64,000 bases of DNA from a phage: assembly GCA_037431425.1 (NCBI GenBank), contig GCA_037431425.1_4129.1, one strand, 5' to 3'. A model generated the notes under the pieces. That model worked only from the letters and a program-made list of their open reading frames with translations. It was not told the DNA's origin and made no database searches. Below, piece after piece: positions 6,115 to 64,000 of the stretch (position 1 is its first letter; the number at the start of each line of letters is the position of its first letter). Both the position numbers and the translations under genes were made by a program.

Positions 6115-6239
<125 letters not shown>

Positions 6240-6246
6240 CAAAAGA

Positions 6247-6320
6247 CGGGGTATAGCACAATTGGATAGTGCAAGAGAATTCTAATCTCTAGGTTGGGGG
6301 TTCAAGTCCCTCTACCTCGG
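6247..6320 (+). tRNA. tRNA-Arg(UCU)
   Basis: hand-folded: acceptor CGGGGTA/TACCTCG (one G-U), D-stem GCAC/GTGC, anticodon loop ATTCTAA, T-loop TTCAAGT. Confidence 0.9.
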
Positions 6321-6344
6321 CCTACTTCAATTAAAGGTTAAACC

Positions 6345-6509
6345 ATGACGCATGAAGAATGGATGAATGACATTAATTTTAGATATGCAGGTATCGGTAA
6401 CTGGAGAAAGTATCATTGGGAAATCATATCAGACCCAGCAGAATACGATAAACTTATGAATCATGAAGTGTATCCGTGGTTCTTTATTGAAATAATGGTA
6501 CGATTATGA
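6345..6509 (+). CDS. MTHEEWM mini-protein, 54 aa
   Basis: translated by hand; ATGA coupling to next paralogue. Confidence 0.6.
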   Translation: MTHEEWMNDINFRYAGIGNWRKYHWEIISDPAEYDKLMNHEVYPWFFIEIMVRL

Positions 6510-6666
6510 CACATGAAGAATGGATGAATGACATTAATTTTAGATATTCGGGTATCGGTAAATGGCTAAAGTATCATTGGGAATTCATTTCAGAGCCACA
6601 TCTGTATGATAAACTTATCAACGATTCTGCATATAAAATGTACTTAATTGAACTACTGGTACGAAC

Positions 6667-6670
<4 letters not shown>
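6506..6670 (+). CDS. MTHEEWM mini-protein, 54 aa
   Basis: near-identical N-terminal half to 6345 copy; ATGA coupling. Confidence 0.6.
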
Positions 6671-6839
<169 letters not shown>

Positions 6840-6843
6840 AATC

Positions 6844-7284
<441 letters not shown>

Positions 7285-7312
7285 GTATCTTAACAACAGA
7301 AGGTATATTGAA

Positions 7313-7552
7313 ATGGGTAAGTATTTTGTGAGTTATAGTTATAATGTATCACGAAAGATTCCACGCGGTGACGGAATGGGATGGTCTTATGATGCATATA
7401 CTTTAAATGAGTCATGTATCATCGAATTACAAGAAAAAGACCTTGACATTTTAAAAATCAAACAATATATTCTTGATGTTGAATTGGCACATCGTACTGA
7501 TACCTATCCAGATGTAAACAACATCAGCATCTTAGTACTAACCAAAGTATAA
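7313..7552 (+). CDS. hypothetical protein, 79 aa
   Basis: track ORF trimmed to ATG 7313 with AGAAGG SD. Confidence 0.6.
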   Translation: MGKYFVSYSYNVSRKIPRGDGMGWSYDAYTLNESCIIELQEKDLDILKIKQYILDVELAHRTDTYPDVNNISILVLTKV

Positions 7553-7622
7553 GATAAAAAGAACTTTACTAAATAATTCCACTGGAGATTAATATGTTTA
7601 AAGATGAACGTCCAGATTTGTA

Positions 7623-7661
<39 letters not shown>

Positions 7662-7667
7662 GAATTC

Positions 7668-8006
7668 CACAATCAGACGTATATGGTGTAAGTTACGTCG
7701 ATGCTATCCAGAACAAGATCTCTGGTACTCTAGGAAGTGGTGAATGTTAACCTAGACGGGTTTGATAATTGGACGATAGGCAATTATTACTTGACTAGCA
7801 GGTTGAAACTAGAGGTGACAGTCCTTCACCAAACTGGAAAGCCGGATGGACTTTTATTTAAAAGGGTAAGGCGTGGAAATATGTTTACTGTAGTTGCTTT
7901 TAGTAGCCTGTACGCCCCACGTCAAGGTAGTCGAAAGGCAAGTTAAAACGGGTGGTTATAAAGCTGAATTAACAGCGGCGTTTAAAAGCGTCACCATCCA
8001 TTTTTT
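7668..8006 (+). ncRNA. candidate structured RNA of about 340 nt, class unknown
   Basis: strong promoter, no SD-led ORF, visibly higher GC than flanks, local hairpins (GGTGA-CAGTCCT-TCACC; CTAG..CTAG), ends in weak hairpin plus T7 run. Confidence 0.4.
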
Positions 8007-8023
8007 TAATTAAAGTTGGCTAT

Positions 8024-8391
<368 letters not shown>

Positions 8392-8401
<10 letters not shown>

Positions 8402-8420
8402 TATTCAGTACTGATATAAT
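8392..8420 (+). promoter_or_regulatory. promoter TGGACA-N17-TATAAT with AGTACT in spacer
   Basis: -10 ends 6 nt before tRNA-Ser(GCU) 5' end. Confidence 0.55.
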
Positions 8421-8426
8421 TAATTT

Positions 8427-8513
<87 letters not shown>

Positions 8514-8525
8514 TAAATTGTTCCA

Positions 8526-8612
<87 letters not shown>

Positions 8613-8662
8613 CTGATATTGTTATTATATGAGTTCTAACGATAATGAAACACTAGGAACAT

Positions 8663-8833
<171 letters not shown>

Positions 8834-8857
8834 ACGAAATTACAATAGGAAATTAAA

Positions 8858-9043
8858 ATGCAACTTTTAATTCTTTCAATATTGTATATTATTATAATGG
8901 TTCCGATATCAATACGTTTAATTACAGTTGAACGATTTTTATCGAAACATGGAAATAGATCTATGATATTTGTACCAATCGGGTTGATATTGTTTGGTAT
9001 ATTTTCATTTATAATGGGAATTAACGCTACATTCATTTCATAG
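8858..9043 (+). CDS. small membrane protein, 61 aa (2 TM)
   Basis: two hydrophobic helices; the antisense track ORF overlaps the tRNA and is rejected. Confidence 0.6.
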   Translation: MQLLILSILYIIIMVPISIRLITVERFLSKHGNRSMIFVPIGLILFGIFSFIMGINATFIS

Positions 9044-9052
9044 GAAACAAAT

Positions 9053-9310
<258 letters not shown>

Positions 9311-9324
9311 ATAAAAAGAACGAA

Positions 9325-9647
<323 letters not shown>

Positions 9648-9649
9648 TA

Positions 9650-9833
<184 letters not shown>

Positions 9834-9913
9834 TAAATAATACAGTAAGATGGCCTCCCCTCCATATCATGAGAGTATAGAGACTTGTTGGTTATCTTAC
9901 TTTTAAACAAACT

Positions 9914-9987
9914 GCCTCAATAGCAAAATTGGTAATGCACACGTTTTGTAAGCGTGAGATTTTTCCGTTCGAGTCGGAATTGGGGCA
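9914..9987 (+). tRNA. tRNA-Thr(UGU)
   Basis: acceptor GCCTCAA/TTGGGGC (one U-G), anticodon stem CACGT/GCGTG, loop TTTGTAA, T-arm TTCCG-TTCGAGT-CGGAA. Confidence 0.88.
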
Positions 9988-10004
9988 CAAAATAAAGGCA
10001 CACT

Positions 10005-47290: not shown

Positions 47291-48436
47291 TTATTTTTTC
47301 CAAGGAAGTAACGAAGTTGGTATTTTGATAGGTATATTTGATGAAACAACATCAGGAAAATTTGCATCCCCACAAACATACAAATTATCGTCTTCGTCTA
47401 TCAATAATATATAGTTGTAACTTCTACAAAACCCATTTAAACCTCTTCCCTCTAATGCAGATAAATTTATTTCAGTGAATTGTGTTATATATGTTTCATT
47501 TGAACCAACACCACATTGACCATTAGCATTTATACCACAAGTAAGCAATTTATTATTGTTTTGAATTATACATGATGGTCCAGCAAGGTTTGTACCTAGT
47601 TCACCTACAACGTTGACCTCACCTTGTAATGATAAATTTGGAATCACTGTACTCATTGGGACACGAGATGTATTTCCAACACCTGCTTGTCCTGAACCAT
47701 TAGTGGATGCTACTTTAACAGTACCGTCATTAAGAAAAATATAAGATGTTTCGATTGTATTAACTGCTTGAGTAGCTGATGTTATTGACGTATCCTGTTT
47801 GAATTTGAGTACATTTGTTGTTGTCGAACCAGAGATATATGTAGCACCTGCGTACCAATATGTTCCATCCTGGAGTACTAAACCAGTACTTCTAATTGAA
47901 CACCCAGCACTTCGAACATTTTCTATATGACTATATGTAAAGGTTGATACAATTGAAGATTCACCATTACCAAATACCCCACCAGTACCTGCACCACAGA
48001 AAAACCATTTACCGTTTTTCAAAAATACACGCATACAAGCAGAAATAACCACACTATCAATATCACTTGCAGTTACACCAAAATCGGTAAAGAAATGAGT
48101 TATATCAATCCAATTGCCACCAGTATTTGATGGGAGATGTGGAATTACAACTCTAGTCCCTGTGTACCAGATTGTATCATCATCTTTAATAACAAGCGTA
48201 CCTTGAACACCCCCCCAATACCTGGTTACATTAGTATTAACAAGTGTCCACTCATTAGATGATTCCGTTGAGCCATTACCACCTTGACCATATGATGATG
48301 AACCGCACCAGTATAAATTGCCATTTTTATTTAAATAAAATTTTGCATCAGCCGAACATTGTAATCTGTATTTGAATACAGTTTTTGGTGCTGGTGCAAT
48401 ATTTGCATACTTAATCATTCTTCCAAAAGGTAACAT
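47291..48436 (-). CDS. RCC1-like repeat beta-propeller protein, 381 aa
   Basis: MLPFGRMIKYANIAP N-terminus; repeats such as LYWCGSSSYGQGGNG, LLTCGINANGQCGVG. Confidence 0.8.
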   Translation of the reverse strand: MLPFGRMIKYANIAPAPKTVFKYRLQCSADAKFYLNKNGNLYWCGSSSYGQGGNGSTESSNEWTLVNTNVTRYWGGVQGTLVIKDDDTIWYTGTRVVIPHLPSNTGGNWIDITHFFTDFGVTASDIDSVVISACMRVFLKNGKWFFCGAGTGGVFGNGESSIVSTFTYSHIENVRSAGCSIRSTGLVLQDGTYWYAGATYISGSTTTNVLKFKQDTSITSATQAVNTIETSYIFLNDGTVKVASTNGSGQAGVGNTSRVPMSTVIPNLSLQGEVNVVGELGTNLAGPSCIIQNNNKLLTCGINANGQCGVGSNETYITQFTEINLSALEGRGLNGFCRSYNYILLIDEDDNLYVCGDANFPDVVSSNIPIKIPTSLLPWKK

Positions 48437-58948: not shown

Positions 58949-59131
58949 ATGCACAAAGAATACTACACACAATTTCTCCCCAGTATATTTGAACACTACG
59001 CCAGATATAAAGTCCCACTGGATAACGATTTGGCAGTACTCGGATTCAATAACTGCATAGAACGCAGTATAGAAAATAGTAGTTCATATGACCAACTATA
59101 TAACACTATCCTACTTATATTCAGGTACTAA
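58949..59131 (+). CDS. small tandem-array protein (IYRY subtype), 60 aa
   Basis: MHKEYYTQFLP..ILLIFRY. Confidence 0.65.
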   Translation: MHKEYYTQFLPSIFEHYARYKVPLDNDLAVLGFNNCIERSIENSSSYDQLYNTILLIFRY

Positions 59132-59132
59132 T

Positions 59133-59321
59133 ATGTTTAAAGAATACTACGCAAAATATTTCCCAATGTATCTCAGAACTAATCTATTAGATAAACCTCG
59201 CGATATCAATGCTCAAAACGATAAAGTGTACTTTATTATGTGCACTAAAGCATGTATACTAGATCATGACAGCTACCATCGAGTACTCTATCATACACTG
59301 TACCTAACATTCGTGTACTAA
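59133..59321 (+). CDS. small tandem-array protein (IYRY subtype), 62 aa
   Basis: trimmed to ATG 59133; MFKEYYAKYFPMYL..LYLTFVY. Confidence 0.65.
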   Translation: MFKEYYAKYFPMYLRTNLLDKPRDINAQNDKVYFIMCTKACILDHDSYHRVLYHTLYLTFVY

Positions 59322-59331
59322 AGAGAACATT

Positions 59332-59526
59332 ATGCAACACAAGTTCAAAGAATTCTACTTAAGCCGCCTGGAACTAAACTCCCAAATGCTTATACCACTA
59401 AAACCAATAGATATCAAGGATAAGAAAAATACCCAACAATTCATCTACCATACACAGTGTGCTATCTCCCCAGATTATAATACATATAAATTGTACTATA
59501 TCATCGCCCTAATACTCAGGTACTAA
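59332..59526 (+). CDS. small tandem-array protein (IYRY subtype), 64 aa
   Basis: FKEFYLSRL..IALILRY. Confidence 0.65.
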   Translation: MQHKFKEFYLSRLELNSQMLIPLKPIDIKDKKNTQQFIYHTQCAISPDYNTYKLYYIIALILRY

Positions 59527-59528
59527 TC

Positions 59529-59714
59529 ATGTATAAAGAATACTACACACAATTTGTTAAAGAAAACTACAAATATGCCGTCCCCATAAAACCCTTAAAT
59601 GCTAATGACCCAAATACTATATTCCTGTTTAATGACGCAATACGTACAGTACTCAATACTAAAGATGAACAAGTGCAGTACGTATTCTTACTTTTACTTA
59701 TATACAGACACTAA
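59529..59714 (+). CDS. small tandem-array protein (IYRY subtype), 61 aa
   Basis: MYKEYYTQFV..LLLLIYRH. Confidence 0.65.
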   Translation: MYKEYYTQFVKENYKYAVPIKPLNANDPNTIFLFNDAIRTVLNTKDEQVQYVFLLLLIYRH

Positions 59715-59715
59715 T

Positions 59716-59925
59716 ATGAATAAAGTACATAAAGAATTCTATTCCAGATACCTCAGCCTATCAGAACAAATGTTTATAAGATCTACACCACCATTAAGTA
59801 CTGATACTTACTTCGGTAGAGTATGCTACAATAAATGTGTACAAATGACTTTAAACGCAAACGACAATAATAACAGTACTAACCTGTACTCAGGCATCAT
59901 AGGTATACTATTTCTATATGATTAA
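59716..59925 (+). CDS. small tandem-array protein, 69 aa
   Basis: trimmed to ATG 59716; HKEFYSRYLS; paralogue of 56497. Confidence 0.65.
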   Translation: MNKVHKEFYSRYLSLSEQMFIRSTPPLSTDTYFGRVCYNKCVQMTLNANDNNNSTNLYSGIIGILFLYD

Positions 59926-60100
59926 AGAATATAAAGACTTCTACATAAGAAAACTAACATTCGTCCCCGTAAGAATATACAAAGAATGCGACCCAAGATT
60001 ATACCTATGGCACTTCAATGAGTGCATAAAAGATTCTATATACCCTAAGAACTATAAAGAACAATTGTGCTCAGTACTAACACTAGTACTATCATATTAA
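59918..60100 (+). CDS. small tandem-array protein, 60 aa
   Basis: YKDFYIRKL; paralogue of 56699. Confidence 0.6.
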   Translation: MIKEYKDFYIRKLTFVPVRIYKECDPRLYLWHFNECIKDSIYPKNYKEQLCSVLTLVLSY

Positions 60101-60113
60101 TAGAGATAATACT

Positions 60114-60326
60114 ATGAATAAAGAACATAAAAACTTCTATATAAGTAAACTAAAAGAAAATGAACAAGTATGGATTAGATCTATAATAGAACTGGCATTT
60201 AATAGATACGCACTGAATAGATGTACACAGATTGCTATAGACCCTTATCCCATTGAAGAGGATGAAAAGGATGTACAGTACAATCAGTACTACTATATCT
60301 TAATGCTTATATATAGACCTATATAG
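60114..60326 (+). CDS. small tandem-array protein, 70 aa
   Basis: HKNFYISKL..LMLIYRPI; last gene before the noncoding region. Confidence 0.65.
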   Translation: MNKEHKNFYISKLKENEQVWIRSIIELAFNRYALNRCTQIAIDPYPIEEDEKDVQYNQYYYILMLIYRPI

Positions 60327-60340
60327 GAAACTACACAGGC

Positions 60341-60423
60341 GAATTGCTAAAATTCAGCCTGCTATACGTCTGAATTGTTAAAATTCAGCCTGCTATACGT
60401 CTGAATTGTTAAAATTCAGCCTG
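60341..60423. repeat. 31-bp direct tandem repeat, 2.7 copies
   Basis: GAATTG(C/T)TAAAATTCAGCCTGCTATACGTCT at 60341, 60372, and partial at 60403; each unit contains the inverted repeat TGAATT..AATTCA. Confidence 0.9.
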
Positions 60424-60467
60424 GACAAATGCGATCACCAGGATTCTCTCCAGGCTAAACACCGTAG

Positions 60468-60534: not shown

Positions 60535-61027
60535 GTAGAATCACAGAATGATTATATATGATTCAGTACTGCCCCAAAAGTATTCAGTACTGAAGAATTA
60601 CCCCTGAATGATTCAGTACTGATATGCCACTAAGTAGGCAGAGGAAGTCTGCCGTACTTTGTAGTTTCCAAGCTCCTTTTCCATTTTGCAAATTACATCA
60701 AATGTAATCAAAAGTAATCACGTAATGATTAGTACTGAAATATTAGTTTCATCTTTTTTCAAATACCTTTTTACCCTTCGGGGTAAATGTATTTTTACCC
60801 ATTTACCTTTGGGGTAAAATCCCATTACCCCTTGAGGCTCCAGCAAAAAGTTGGAAAGTACTCCATCCTAAATCTCGATCCTAAAAATTTTGGAGTACCT
60901 ATGAAATAAAAGTTGGATCTTCGAAAGTTGAAATTTACGTTGGGACGTTTATGATTTGTGGGATATAATGATGTTTGTAGTCGGGTAGTTCTCAAGAATA
61001 TCAGTACTGAATGGTGAAAGAAAGTTA

Positions 61028-61055
61028 TTGACATTATGATTCAGTACTGTATAAT
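61028..61055 (+). promoter_or_regulatory. promoter TTGACA-N16-TATAAT with AGTACT in spacer, inside ORF-free region
   Basis: read directly; downstream has GNRA hairpin CTGTC-GTGA-GACAG and no ORF. Confidence 0.6.
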
Positions 61056-61435
61056 GTTCTACATAGAGAGATGAGTTGCTGCGAACAATTCATTTACTCT
61101 ACCTCCTGTCGTGAGACAGTACAGAAAAGATAGTTCCTCCTGTGGTGGTACATCTTTTTGAACCTCATATGAAAATCGTAATAACAGTACTGGTATTAAC
61201 AGAATGGTATCAGTACTGACTTTAATCTAATACATTATACCACCAGCTTGTGCTGGTGGATTCCCTCTAACAGTATTCAGTACTACATGATAGTCTTCAT
61301 CCTCCTAGGGTAACATAGTGAGGGCTATTGTGGGAGTACTGAATACTCCTTTCAAAAGATAGAATAATGGTATAGTACCGACGGATTTTGGGCGTAGTTA
61401 CCCTGGGTGTATTTTGGACGTAGATATGTCTAGCC

Positions 61436-61578
61436 CTCCAGAAGTCTGGAAGTAAAGATGGCTATCTATCTAGACGGCTAAACGGCTAGATTTCTAGATG
61501 GCTGTATGGCTAGACGTTTGGATGGCTAAACGGCTAAACGGCTAGATGGTTACACGTCTGGAAGTATAGACGGCTAAA
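61436..61578. repeat. iteron block: 8 GGCTA cores bracketed by direct repeats GTCTGGAAGTA
   Basis: GGCTA at 61460, 61476, 61484, 61508, 61524, 61532, 61540, 61572 (consensus ACGGCTAAA/ACGGCTAGA); GTCTGGAAGTA at 61444-61454 and 61556-61566. Confidence 0.85.
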
Positions 61579-61927
61579 TCAAAATTTTTATTTTGTTTTT
61601 CCAATAGTTCCCCTACCGCGTGAGGATATTTTTTCCCCGCAGTATCTGGAGTTAGATTTTTCTGAATCTGGAATCATTATCTAATAAACTGGGGGCAATG
61701 TCAACCGCCTGGATGAATATTTTTAAAAAATAATCTAGTACTAAATTTTGGGCGTAACTATGCACCCGGTGGGCTTGAGTCTTTCTCGACTTGATGAAAT
61801 AATTATATCAGTACTGAAAAAATAAAGCAATACCCTAAACGCAAAAAAAATTTAATTAATTTGCTTGCTATTCTGGGCCGTACTATGGTACTATTAATTC
61901 AGTACTGAGAAAGTGCTTTTACCTGCT

Positions 61928-61999
61928 AGGGTGCGGGAGTGTATCCTTTTTAAATTTTATGAATTTTGGGCAGATCTCCGCACCCTGTGGGTTAGTGCC
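61928..61999. repeat. GC-rich dyad element (long hairpin), copy A
   Basis: AGGGTGCGGGAG ... CTCCGCACCCT arms around an AT-rich 45-nt core; shares the 16-mer GGTGCGGGAGTGTATC with the 63898 copy. Confidence 0.7.
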
Positions 62000-62210
62000 T
62001 TGTGTCCGGCTTATGTAGTAATTATACGCTTTTTCAGTACTGAGTCAATACCTAAAAACAAAATAATTGAAAATAATTTAACGCGTTTAAACGGCCCGTA
62101 AAGCCCTGGAATGATTAGAATGGTGCAAATGTATAGCTTAGGTGTAATATCTCGTTAGAATGCGACTGAGGCCGTTTTACGGGGTATAGGGATGATTTAG
62201 TGGATTGATT

Positions 62211-62298
62211 CAGTACTGAATAATAGTACTCCTATATAGAAAGATAGTTCCCCTGGATGGTTGCAGTACTGAATAATAGTACTCCTATATAGAAAGAA
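62211..62298. repeat. 35-bp direct repeat x2
   Basis: CAGTACTGAATAATAGTACTCCTATATAGAAAGA at 62211 and 62264. Confidence 0.85.
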
Positions 62299-62329
62299 AA
62301 CTATTTTAAAAAGTATTTGTAGAAAGTAC

Positions 62330-62388
62330 TTGCACCGTACTGATAAAAGCGTATAATGTTTTACATCGAGAGCGGGAGCACTTCCCGC
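62330..62388 (+). promoter_or_regulatory. conserved promoter plus 5' hairpin cassette, copy 1
   Basis: TTGCAC-N16-TATAAT, then TTTTACATCGAGAGCGGGAGCACTTCCCGC (stem GCGGGA/TCCCGC). Confidence 0.7.
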
Positions 62389-62412
62389 TACACATTAAGA
62401 GAGATTAAAACG

Positions 62413-62775
62413 ATGGCGACTCAAATCAATAAAATTATTGCTAACCTGGTTAACTTCCGTGAAGAGATGAAAGGTCTTCCGGCTGAAACGGTAAAAATTC
62501 ACATTTCAGCTTATCGGGAACTTATTGCAATGTTACCGCTTAAGCGTGAACAATACGCCGCTACCGTGATGCTTGATGCGATGATCAATAAGATGATCGC
62601 CAGTGATTTAACGATGGTTTATCAGTACATGGGCGAAAATTTCGCGGTGTCTGGTAAGCCAGTACCAGGGATGGCAACTACTGAGGAATTGCACGGTTTA
62701 AATTTAAAACAAGATGCATGGGATAATATGCCTCGTTTCCTGGTATGGGCTGACAGTGGCAAAATTTACAAATAA
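62413..62775 (+). CDS. hypothetical protein, 120 aa
   Basis: trimmed to ATG 62413 (MATQINK) downstream of the cassette; higher GC than the rest of the window. Confidence 0.75.
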   Translation: MATQINKIIANLVNFREEMKGLPAETVKIHISAYRELIAMLPLKREQYAATVMLDAMINKMIASDLTMVYQYMGENFAVSGKPVPGMATTEELHGLNLKQDAWDNMPRFLVWADSGKIYK

Positions 62776-62789
62776 GTTTAATAAAGTAC

Positions 62790-62875
62790 TTGCCAACTAA
62801 GTTTAAAAGCGTATAATACTTTACATCAGGTGCAACGGGAAGTTTAAAAACTTCCCTATAGGGGAATAGTTCCCC
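62790..62875 (+). promoter_or_regulatory. promoter plus 5' hairpin cassette, copy 2 (variant)
   Basis: TTGCCA-N16-TATAAT; hairpins GGGAAG..CTTCCC and GGGGA-ATAGT-TCCCC. Confidence 0.65.
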
Positions 62876-62896
62876 ACTATATAAGAGGATTAAAAA

Positions 62897-63136
62897 ATGG
62901 CTAAATCAAAAATGTTCTTAGGTCACAAAAACAAAACTCATTGGAATGTAAGCCTTTGGATTAATAACGATGAATCATTATACCGGTTGGCCCTGGACTT
63001 TATTGCCGCTAATACTAATCGCAATGATGCGGCCCGTCATATGATGTTATTTTTAGAACAGACTGGACAAGATAAAACACCGGACGGATTCAAATATAGC
63101 ACTACTGCGATCCGTGCGGCGATGGTTGGAATGTAA
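62897..63136 (+). CDS. hypothetical protein, 79 aa
   Basis: AGAGGA SD. Confidence 0.75.
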   Translation: MAKSKMFLGHKNKTHWNVSLWINNDESLYRLALDFIAANTNRNDAARHMMLFLEQTGQDKTPDGFKYSTTAIRAAMVGM

Positions 63137-63149
63137 TAGAATTTATTTA

Positions 63150-63184
63150 AAGTACTATCGCAAAAAATGATAGTACTTTATAAT
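63150..63184 (+). promoter_or_regulatory. AGTACT-based hairpin abutting TATAAT
   Basis: AAGTACTATC..GATAGTACTT stem followed directly by TATAAT. Confidence 0.5.
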
Positions 63185-63221
63185 AGTGTTTTATTCATAC
63201 ACCAACGATAAGGGCAATAGC

Positions 63222-63488
63222 ATGAATATTAAGTATTTTGCGACGCGTGAACAAGCTCGGAAGGCGGCGAAAGTGGAAGGTGCAACGTTTAAAGATATGG
63301 GCATACAATCGGAACGTGGTAAACGTTGGGCCATTGTAAAGCGTAGTACAGCCAGATCATTACAGTACTGGTTAGCGGCTTTAAAAAGTCCTGCTAGTGT
63401 ATCGCGTCGAGTGGTAGAAATAAAGCTCGACCGTAAGGGGAATCGTGTTACCGTGTACCGTACTAAAAAGATAGCAGTACTTGAATAA
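63222..63488 (+). CDS. basic hypothetical protein, 88 aa
   Basis: trimmed to ATG 63222 with AAGGG SD. Confidence 0.7.
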   Translation: MNIKYFATREQARKAAKVEGATFKDMGIQSERGKRWAIVKRSTARSLQYWLAALKSPASVSRRVVEIKLDRKGNRVTVYRTKKIAVLE

Positions 63489-63495
63489 AAAGAAC

Positions 63496-63554
63496 TTGCA
63501 AACTATGTTTAATGGCGTATAATGTTTTACATCGAGAGCGGGAACACTTCCCGC
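63496..63554 (+). promoter_or_regulatory. conserved promoter plus 5' hairpin cassette, copy 3
   Basis: TTGCAA-N16-TATAAT, then TTTTACATCGAGAGCGGGAACACTTCCCGC; near-identical to copy 1. Confidence 0.7.
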
Positions 63555-63575
63555 CTATAAACTGGAGTAATAAAA

Positions 63576-63806
63576 ATGACTAATATGTATATGACTGAAG
63601 TTAAAACCGTAAAAGATACTACCACGAATAAAACTACTTACTTACAGCGGATCTGCGGTGTATGGCAACGTATCAGCAAATCAAAGTACTATAAATTAAC
63701 ATCATATGCCAATCGTTCGGATTCATTCAGTACTGAAATAAAAGGTAATAAAGTACACCAATACGGCACTTATTATTATTATAGCCTGGACGCGATTGCA
63801 GTATAA
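63576..63806 (+). CDS. hypothetical protein, 76 aa
   Basis: GGAG SD. Confidence 0.7.
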   Translation: MTNMYMTEVKTVKDTTTNKTTYLQRICGVWQRISKSKYYKLTSYANRSDSFSTEIKGNKVHQYGTYYYYSLDAIAV

Positions 63807-63836
63807 GTAGTTTACAAATCTTTACAATTGCCGGTA

Positions 63837-63865
63837 TTGACTTAAAATGTCAGTACTGGCATAAT
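63837..63865 (+). promoter_or_regulatory. promoter TTGACT-N17-CATAAT with AGTACT in spacer
   Basis: read directly; transcribes GC-rich dyad copy B. Confidence 0.55.
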
Positions 63866-63885
63866 GTATCTATTGAAACGAACAA

Positions 63886-63966
63886 TTTGGCCCACGGGGT
63901 GCGGGAGTGTATCTATAGCAAAATTAGTTTAGTATAATTACAATTGTGCACCCGGTGGGTTAGCTG
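63886..63966. repeat. GC-rich dyad element, copy B
   Basis: CCCACGGGGTGC (63891-63902) pairs with GCACCCGGTGGG (63948-63959), 11/12; same 16-mer as copy A. Confidence 0.7.
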
Positions 63967-64000
63967 TTGTCATGGGGTATATTATGCCAGTACTTGATAA

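Follow-up and report, generated by a model that had tools for sequence, protein, structure and literature searches.

Facing repeats in the terminal repeat of an Asteriusvirus jumbo coliphage as probable members of a promoter-linked, transcribed unit family

The repeats described here come closest to the PeSL cassettes of T4-like phages (PMC2839356, PMC4122927), in which a motif repeated through the early or hyperplastic region combines a consensus sigma-70 promoter and an AT-rich upstream part with a stem-loop, and which occur in dozens of copies between small genes of unassigned role, with signs of exchange between copies. These features are shared by a family of repeats with members in a 64,000-nucleotide (nt) stretch of phage DNA (NCBI GenBank assembly GCA_037431425.1, contig GCA_037431425.1_4129.1), referred to below as the window, where an earlier sequence-only reading had described GC-rich dyads forming long hairpins around AT-rich cores between positions 61385 and 63966. 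Our analysis indicates that these repeats are probably members of a family of promoter-linked, transcribed units under constraint at the RNA level, and that the dyads are convergent pairs of such units.

PeSLs place a promoter and a terminator stem-loop directly before an ORFan and have no invariant transcribed box, whereas the units carry a conserved RNA module of ~55 nt, often lack an open reading frame (ORF), can run against the genes and form pairs of fixed spacing. As in PeSLs, strong sigma-70-like promoters with an AT-rich upstream region are present (62021-62048 on the minus strand and 63837-63865 on the plus strand). A terminator-like stem-loop at the promoter is found in the interior units of relatives, where AAAGGGATTGACTCCGGTCAGTCCCTTT overlaps the -35 element; none was seen at the promoters of the window units U1, U2 and U4 (Table 1). 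The units do not lie immediately upstream of a small ORF, and in relatives a separate gene promoter stands between unit and ORF. Because the units do not precede an ORFan and add an invariant RNA module, they are set apart from PeSLs, and the PeSL cassette is the nearest described kind. A precedent by location comes from PA5oct, a more distant jumbo-phage relative, in whose long terminal repeat two ORF-free loci yield highly transcribed non-coding RNAs (PMC7318152); these are 236-451 nt in length and were reported without known promoters or sequence similarity.

To define the units, all CCCACNGGGTGC-like sequences of the window and of related phages were listed together with their flanks. Each unit begins with a near-consensus sigma-70 promoter composed of TTGACA, a spacer of 16-18 nt that often contains CAGTACTG, and TATAAT. 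The predicted start is 6 nt past the -10 element, at the A of a conserved CAT and ~20 nt upstream of the box. It is followed by hairpin 1, a stem of 3-5 bp with an A-rich purine loop (GAGAAA, AGAUAA, AGAACAA, GCGAAA and others), then by a linker of 3-5 nt ending in R, and then by the box, CCCAYNGGGUGC. Downstream of the box are 6 nt, the element (G)YRYCY and AU-rich sequence. A sigma-70-like promoter accompanies 56 of the 57 listed box instances (7 sequences), with a -10 hexamer that starts 27-35 nt upstream, and the single instance without one (L008 6639, minus strand) is a terminator look-alike. By eye, no conserved start codon or reading frame runs across the aligned units, and a small peptide encoded in them was rejected on these grounds. 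A covariance model built from 23 units gave scores of 52, 41, 34 and 27 bits in the window plus one partial match of 15 bits, with no credible match in the other 60 kb, outside the direct terminal repeat (DTR). In all, the window contains four full units and a degenerate fifth, each of them intergenic.

The repeats noted in the sequence-only reading are indeed present. For the 16-mer GGTGCGGGAGTGTATC, exact matches lie at 61930 and 63898, and the 64 kb contain no other even at three mismatches (0.09 expected), while GCACCCKGTGGG recurs at 61762, 61980 and 63948 on the plus strand and, with one mismatch, at 63891 on the minus strand. The arms pair as described (AGGGTGCGGGAG with CTCCGCACCCT, leaving one bulged G, and CCCACGGGGTGC with GCACCCGGTGGG, with one G-G mismatch), and long hairpins are the predicted fold of both modules, whichever strand is taken (z of -2.3 to -3.9). 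What did not stand is the view of each dyad as one element around an AT-rich core; instead, the two arms are the boxes of two different units, which point towards each other. Dyad B is formed by U4 (63891, plus strand) facing U5 (63959, minus strand), and dyad A by the degenerate U3 (GGGUGC at 61929, plus strand) facing U2 (61991, minus strand). U3 has CCUGCUA in place of CCCAY and no good promoter, and a degenerate copy of this type is also present in orthologues. Two stretches had been taken for half copies; that at 61746-61779 belongs to a complete minus-strand unit, U1, whose minimum-energy fold consists of exactly hairpins 1 and 2, and that at 61386-61409 is no more than a degenerate relic, to which 61411-61422 also belongs. 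The TATAAT-like sequence ascribed to the cores is found in copy B alone (63933-63938) and is not kept in orthologues. The promoter given for copy B, at 63837-63865, is real by consensus and does lie ahead of it. The orthologues of U5 have TTGACA, 17 nt and CATAAT, and the start of U5 would lie at ~63973. No ORF is found downstream of U1, U2 or U3, and U5 aims back at the preceding gene.

The way in which the units vary points to constraint on the RNA. Hairpin 1 is made from more than 10 different stems around the same type of loop at the same position (AGUC/GACU, UGGC/GCCG, UGAG/CUCA, GACG/CGUC, GGAG/CUCC, ACCG/CGGU, GUCA/UGAC and others), with both-side changes in all four pairs. Between 90 and 97% of cells are paired versus 31-54% with a slid partner, a level reached by 0 of 500 shuffles, and since the unit copies are paralogues the covariation counts do not represent independent events. 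In an unselected set, a hairpin-1 stem of at least 4 bp was found in 34 of 60 units, while shuffles gave 26 at most. In hairpin 2, (G)YRYCY lies opposite the invariant GGGUG(C), with pairing in 89% of cells versus 33-63% for a slid partner; variation is confined to changes of GU to GC and of UA to UG, and the helix is independently predicted by RNAalifold. Tolerance of wobble pairs is meaningful only in the RNA of one strand, and therefore points to selection on one transcribed strand. An alternative fold of the box, the mini-hairpin RCCC-AYN-GGGU, is 98% paired yet nearly invariant, and it and hairpin 2 are mutually exclusive. Another second hairpin (columns 35-39 with 44-48) was rejected, with 51% of cells pairing.

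Covariation of the long arms among relatives, as the sequence-only reading had envisaged, was likewise rejected. The arms are invariant and therefore cannot covary, and arm position N is uncoordinated between partners, with several pairs, including window pair B, mismatching there. It is the small 5' hairpin 1, which was not part of that description, that covaries. A DNA cruciform, also suggested, leaves the strand-specific G-U pattern unexplained. Judging from these patterns, it is very probable that the element is transcribed, as had been proposed, and that selection acts at the RNA level.

The family extends well beyond the window. Both full copies are present at orthologous sites in ~40 Asteriusvirus records, and partial matches to them occur in GAP32, Munch, 7t3, fENko-Kae01 and Hallingskeid. 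With the covariance model, 52 significant units were found in five DTR regions, at ~9-13 per DTR and always between genes; the carriers among relatives are vB_Ec-M-J, ph0011, GAP32, Hallingskeid and fENko-Kae01 (Kae01). A pattern scan of IMG/VR followed by the model added 86 further matches, and the contigs with several matches are all 345-378 kb in length, barring one of 109 kb and a few short fragments. U2 and its promoter are the strongest non-coding matches between the DTR stretch of the window (60600-64000) and the distant Hallingskeid (E = 2e-22 and 3e-19). The first 37 aligned nt of U2 are identical to two units of this Erwinia phage, and the surroundings match at 96% over 54 nt. Average nucleotide identity between phages of other genera is ~24-29% in a published table that does not include Hallingskeid (PMC13070987). 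Subtypes of hairpin 1 (UGGC-AGAUAA-GCCG, AGCA-AGAACAA-UGCU, CGC-GAGAAA-GCG and others) recur in Asteriusvirus, GAP32, Hallingskeid and Kae01.

Two exact-pattern scans of 185,579 bacterial and archaeal species genomes gave, respectively, 0 matches and 16 scattered single matches in unrelated taxa, and no Enterobacterales genome was among them. Dispersed palindromic repeats of host type (REP/BIME, MITE-like) and a mimicked host RNA were rejected, having no bacterial counterpart in these scans. At the Rfam 15 gathering threshold only tRNAs scored in the window and four terminal repeats, and at the E-value threshold the matches over units were at chance level. ARAGORN found six tRNAs at 6153-9988 and no tRNA or tmRNA near 61-64 kb. 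Likenesses of the units to CRISPR repeats, ToxI, tmRNA PK1 and RNase P RNA are presumably short and at chance level only. The box is not described in the papers on CBB, fEgEco12 (PMC13070987), PA5oct (PMC7318152) or PeSLs (PMC2839356, PMC4122927). The units apparently make up a multi-copy RNA family of RaK2-like jumbo phages that is seemingly undescribed.

Over the 3 kb around the element, the match is 96% to Escherichia phage ph0011 and 86-93% to ~40 further Asteriusvirus jumbo phages, among them 121Q, PBECO4 and phAPEC6; by these matches, the source of the window is an Asteriusvirus (121Q/PBECO4-like) jumbo coliphage. Position 1 of vB_Ec-M-J, in which the DTR is annotated as the first 21,525 bp, aligns to 60633 of the window. 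Position 338 of the fEgEco12 record corresponds to window position 61000, and the other records whose first position is the physical genome end show the same alignment; the genome ends of fEgEco12 are backed by restriction digests (PMC13070987). From the end alignments of vB_Ec-M-J and fEgEco12, the element lies 0.75-3.3 kb inside the DTR. Its surroundings there are small genes without an assigned role, all of which have a consensus sigma-70 promoter of their own. To judge by T5-type terminal repeats, the DTR may enter the cell ahead of the other DNA.

Units occur singly and in pairs. In relatives, stand-alone units that run against the genes end ~30-45 nt past the box region in a GC hairpin and a U-tract (L008 5580, minus; L011 17453, plus; L012 11026 and 3333, both minus; L010 12884, minus), and their RNAs are predicted to be ~100 nt long. 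In the 24 distinct pairs, the boxes lie 68 nt apart in 19 cases; the only other spacings are 79 nt (3 pairs) and 86 nt (2 pairs), and a divergent arrangement never occurs. Paired members account for 48 of 152 distinct units, and single units outnumber pairs. Most paired units have GGAG after the box, which lengthens the inverted repeat to ~16 bp. Because of this repeat, the fixed spacing and the absence of divergent pairs, the pair is a constrained module in its own right, and the 68-bp spacing leaves room for a role at the level of the DNA or of the pair. The predicted starts of a pair are ~100-110 bp apart (~63872 and 63973 in pair B), and the transcripts would overlap. This arrangement, in which the two structured RNAs from facing promoters would be fully complementary, resembles that of RNA I and RNA II of ColE1, but the pairs have no evident replicon or toxin context, both partners belong to the same family, and most members are unpaired.

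Two further motifs were seen beside units of relatives. Pairs spaced at 79 or 86 nt have a Fur-box-like palindrome at their centre, for example GAGAATGATAATCATTTAC, which agrees with the consensus at 16 of 19 positions; the sites are L011 19348-19427 and 19886-19972, L012 1002-1088 and 7278-7357, L041 and L063. The palindrome is absent from the 68-nt pairs of the window. A LexA-box-like CTGT-N8-ACAG (e.g. TACTGTACAAATAAACAG) directly follows many units, with 8 in Hallingskeid (L011) versus 0.4 expected and 2 in Kae01 (L012). The window contains only two matches to CTGT-N8-ACAG, at 48366 and 54665, and neither the Fur-like nor the LexA-like motif was found in its DTR part or in the fetched Asteriusvirus and GAP32 repeats. 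Both were rejected as parts of the element, being absent from the DTR part of the window.

Based on these observations, we propose that host sigma-70 RNA polymerase would start ~20 nt upstream of the invariant box and that the first ~55 nt of RNA would form hairpin 1, followed by the box, which would either fold on itself or pair with the downstream YRYCY. The products would be abundant immediate-early small non-coding RNAs, and a single putative partner common to them all, whether protein or RNA, would recognise them by the invariant box. The two transcripts of a convergent pair would overlap and be complementary, and because of this a read-through RNA would form the long hairpin of the sequence-only reading. 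On balance we lean towards an immediate-early small non-coding RNA family with an invariant recognition box, its function deduced from these features. The analysis establishes the anatomy of the units, the family, its conservation and a structural constraint specific to one strand; we infer the transcription of the units, their 3' ends and their action in trans. A bolder version, which we hold only tentatively, is that ~10 RNA genes per DTR, or ~20 per genome, constitute a new class of immediate-early non-coding RNA that joins an invariant 12-nt handle to one of several ancient hairpin subtypes kept across genera and acts in trans on a host or phage factor in the manner of a decoy, sponge or guide, with pairs that deliberately make complementary or double-stranded RNA.

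Several points weigh against a family of small RNAs acting in trans. The start sites and 3' ends are all predictions from the sequence, and the partner or target of the box is putative. Gene-oriented units inside the DTR have no terminator ahead of the next gene's own promoter, and would be leaders unless cut in the AU-rich tail. The exact spacing of 68 nt is not explained by independent small RNAs. About one-fifth of the units have an A-rich stretch without the hairpin-1 stem. Hairpin 2 is weak, with ViennaRNA favouring it in 12 of 60 units and the RCCC-AYN-GGGU mini-hairpin in 33 of 60, and neither fold of the box is provable by covariation because the box never varies. Finally, both alignments lean towards structure, A2 having been picked for being in register and A3 having been fitted to the model.

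Each of four rival explanations accounts for some of the data and fails on other data. The gene-oriented units, of which five interior units of the vB_Ec-M-J DTR have no terminator before the next gene, would suit a leader RNA acting in cis, in which the two hairpins modify RNA polymerase as HK022 put or lambda nut RNA does, or stabilise the downstream early mRNA. The units may resemble the put RNA of HK022, a specific two-stem RNA that acts in cis on RNA polymerase, binding it and suppressing termination. With lambda nut the units share a promoter-proximal early RNA in which a small purine-loop hairpin lies beside a conserved single-stranded or second-hairpin element. The early region is also dense in terminator-like hairpins, and hairpin 1 is similar to boxB in its short GC stem and purine-rich loop, though the loop is only loosely boxB-like. 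Neither strand between 60600 and 64000 has a match to the boxA consensus (GCUCUUUA or GCUCUUA), however. Unlike nut and put sites, many units face against genes or each other or stop at terminators, which argues against read-through. Furthermore, U1-U3 of the window have no downstream gene, downstream genes where present each have their own promoter, and convergent pairs would be senseless for reading through terminators. We therefore regard a leader as unlikely.

The geometry of the pairs could instead reflect a DNA-level site, with the box as a protein-binding sequence and the pair as an inverted-repeat operator, roadblock, recombination or replication site. The preference for exactly 68 bp, the two minor spacings with a Fur-box-like palindrome at their centre, the lack of divergent pairs and a box that is invariant rather than covarying are consistent with such a site, as is the position of pairs A and B in the largely non-coding left end beside a conserved 8-bp tandem array. 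However, the box is not palindromic, and copies mostly stand singly. Both the covariation of hairpin 1 and the YRYCY pattern are strand-specific RNA signatures that a site in double-stranded DNA would not give, and the fixed position relative to the promoter suits a transcript. A site of this kind thus also seems improbable as the explanation of the family.

A PeSL-like mobile promoter cassette, whose modules are kept alike by recombination, which offers homology for the shuffling of early genes and whose transcribed part has no function of its own, appears quite unlikely. The region resembles that of PeSLs in its small genes of unassigned role, each with a consensus promoter and hairpins (PMC2839356, PMC4122927), and in interior units of relatives the -35 element lies inside a terminator-like hairpin. 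At the orthologous U4 site, a block of ~25 nt, extending from hairpin 1 as far as the first half of the box, has been swapped between close relatives. Yet gene conversion leaves unexplained both an invariant 12-nt box beside freely covarying stems and 37 identical nt between phages of different genera, and the window units are not upstream of ORFs.

The long hairpin of the sequence-only reading, if itself functional as an RNase III processing site or two-way barrier read through from upstream genes, would fit the fold of module B (-42.8 kcal/mol, z = -3.9), the stem of ~16 bp that GGAG gives most pairs and the lack of a terminator between the ORF at 63576-63806 and pair B, but is quite unlikely given a loop of 36-45 nt with no U-tract, unlike an intrinsic terminator, the uncoordinated position N, the excess of single units and the full promoters kept by both halves. 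An intrinsic (bidirectional) terminator was rejected for the same loop length and want of a U-run, and the one stem flagged by a terminator scan, at 61928-61947, is weak, with three G-T pairs among its 8.

RaK2-like jumbo phages (121Q, PBECO4, phAPEC6, GAP32, RaK2 and CBB) are candidates for phage therapy, and their early regions of ~20 kb are almost wholly unannotated. If the proposal of an immediate-early RNA family is true, its RNAs, conserved, present in multiple copies and transcribed from the DNA that enters the cell first, would rank high among candidate factors for host takeover or anti-defence. The coordinates of the units (Table 1) offer concrete targets for RNA work, and a covariance model of the family can be used to find members in new genomes. 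The family also corrects annotation, as 'hypothetical proteins' have been placed over units in several records. In 121Q, gene 270 (L001 5789-5974) is a coding sequence for a 'hypothetical protein' drawn across convergent pair B, and the same is seen in other records; these calls over pair B are probably wrong.

Table 1. Positions of the units, their promoters and parts, and the terminal repeat in the window
Feature	Position	Strand	Basis and remarks
Left part of DTR	60633..64000	.	Left boundary ~60633, via alignment of relatives
Relic unit fragments ACACCCAGGGUAACUACGCCCAAAAU and ACGUCCAAAAU	61386..61422	-	Direct-repeat families D13 and D18, compared with U1; no model match
U1, complete unit	61740..61795	-	Covariance model, 52.1 bits, E = 3.7e-11
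U1 hairpin 2, GGGUG/CGCCC	61750-61767	-
U1 box, CCCACCGGGUGC	61762-61773	-
U1 hairpin 1, AGUC-GAGAAA-GACU	61778-61791	-
U1 promoter: TTGCTT, 17-nt spacer with CAGTACTG, TATAAT	61802..61830	-	Sequence reading; predicted start ~61795; orthologues have equivalent promoters
U3, degenerate, left arm of dyad A	61901..61946	+	Partial model match 61927-61946, 15.2 bits, E = 0.14
U3 hairpin-1-like AGUAC-UGAGAAA-GUGCU	61901-61917	+
U3 GGGUGCGGGAGUGUAUCC	61929-61946	+
U2, right arm of dyad A	61958..62014	-	Covariance model, 40.6 bits, E = 3.6e-8
U2 hairpin 1, GCC-GGACACAA-GGC		-
U2 box, CCCACAGGGUGC	61980-61991	-
U2 promoter: TTGACT, 16 nt, TATAAT	62021..62048	-	Promoter scan; 11/12 consensus; predicted start ~62014
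U4 promoter: TTGACT, 17 nt with CAGTACTG, TG-CATAAT	63837..63865	+	Promoter scan; predicted start ~63872
U4, left arm of dyad B	63872..63924	+	Model match 63882-63924, 33.5 bits, E = 2.6e-6
U4 box, CCCACGGGGUGC	63891-63902	+	Followed by GGGAGU and GUAUCU
U5, right arm of dyad B	63926..63986	-	Model match 63926-63970, 26.8 bits, E = 1.4e-4
U5 box, CCCACCGGGUGC	63948-63959	-
U5 -10 element, CATAAT	63981-63986	-	-35 element beyond the window end

Other repeats lie close to the units. The palindrome CAGTACTG has 43 sites in the window versus 0.72 expected, 15 of them in 60564-63858, and often lies in promoter spacers; it may be the site of a putative DNA-binding protein or a signature of a promoter class. 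The related AGTACTTGCA overlaps -35 regions. It is also part of a repeat family formed by the gene promoters themselves at 62320-62388, 62780-62848 and 63486-63554, which consists of AGTACTTGCA and TATAAT, a 5' hairpin such as GAGCGGGAnnnCUUCCCGC and a ribosome-binding site, and is PeSL-like. An iteron-like array with a period of 8 bp (ACGGCTAA/ATGGCTAG) occupies 61418-61577 in the gene-free left end, is flanked by ATTTTGGGCGTA at 61385 and 61745, and has an AT-rich stretch after it; transcription from U1 would run towards the array. GAP32 also has the array, just upstream of a convergent unit pair, and it could be an origin or a packaging-related site. At 61028-61140, a perfect-consensus promoter (TTGACA, 16 nt, TATAAT) precedes ~100 nt that are rich in hairpins and have no ORF, and this could be a further small RNA with no relation to the box family.

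Some features lie near the boundary of the DTR. A palindromic double Chi site, CCACCAGC-TTGT-GCTGGTGG, lies ~600 bp from the DTR boundary (window 61240-61259, L008 588-607 and L012 484-503). Chi is strongly enriched in the fetched DTR-containing stretches, with ~0.4 expected per strand, and is mostly co-oriented with the early genes. Counts on the plus and minus strands are 9 and 2 in vB_Ec-M-J (26 kb), 12 and 2 in Kae01 (25 kb), 7 and 2 in GAP32, and 11 versus 6 in Hallingskeid, where the bias is weaker. This enrichment could shield the linear ends from RecBCD. A short non-coding segment at 60838-60906, ~200-270 bp from the boundary, is kept in Kae01 (record positions 83-192), Hallingskeid and GAP32, and is a candidate terminus or terminase recognition region. 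Just before the boundary, at 58949-60326, paralogous ORFs of 60-77 amino acids, at least six in number, are arrayed in tandem, with N-termini like MxKEYYTQF and C-termini ending in Y (...IFRY, ...TFVY, ...LILRY and ...LVLSY), and this array is followed by a 31-bp triple repeat at 60341-60433.

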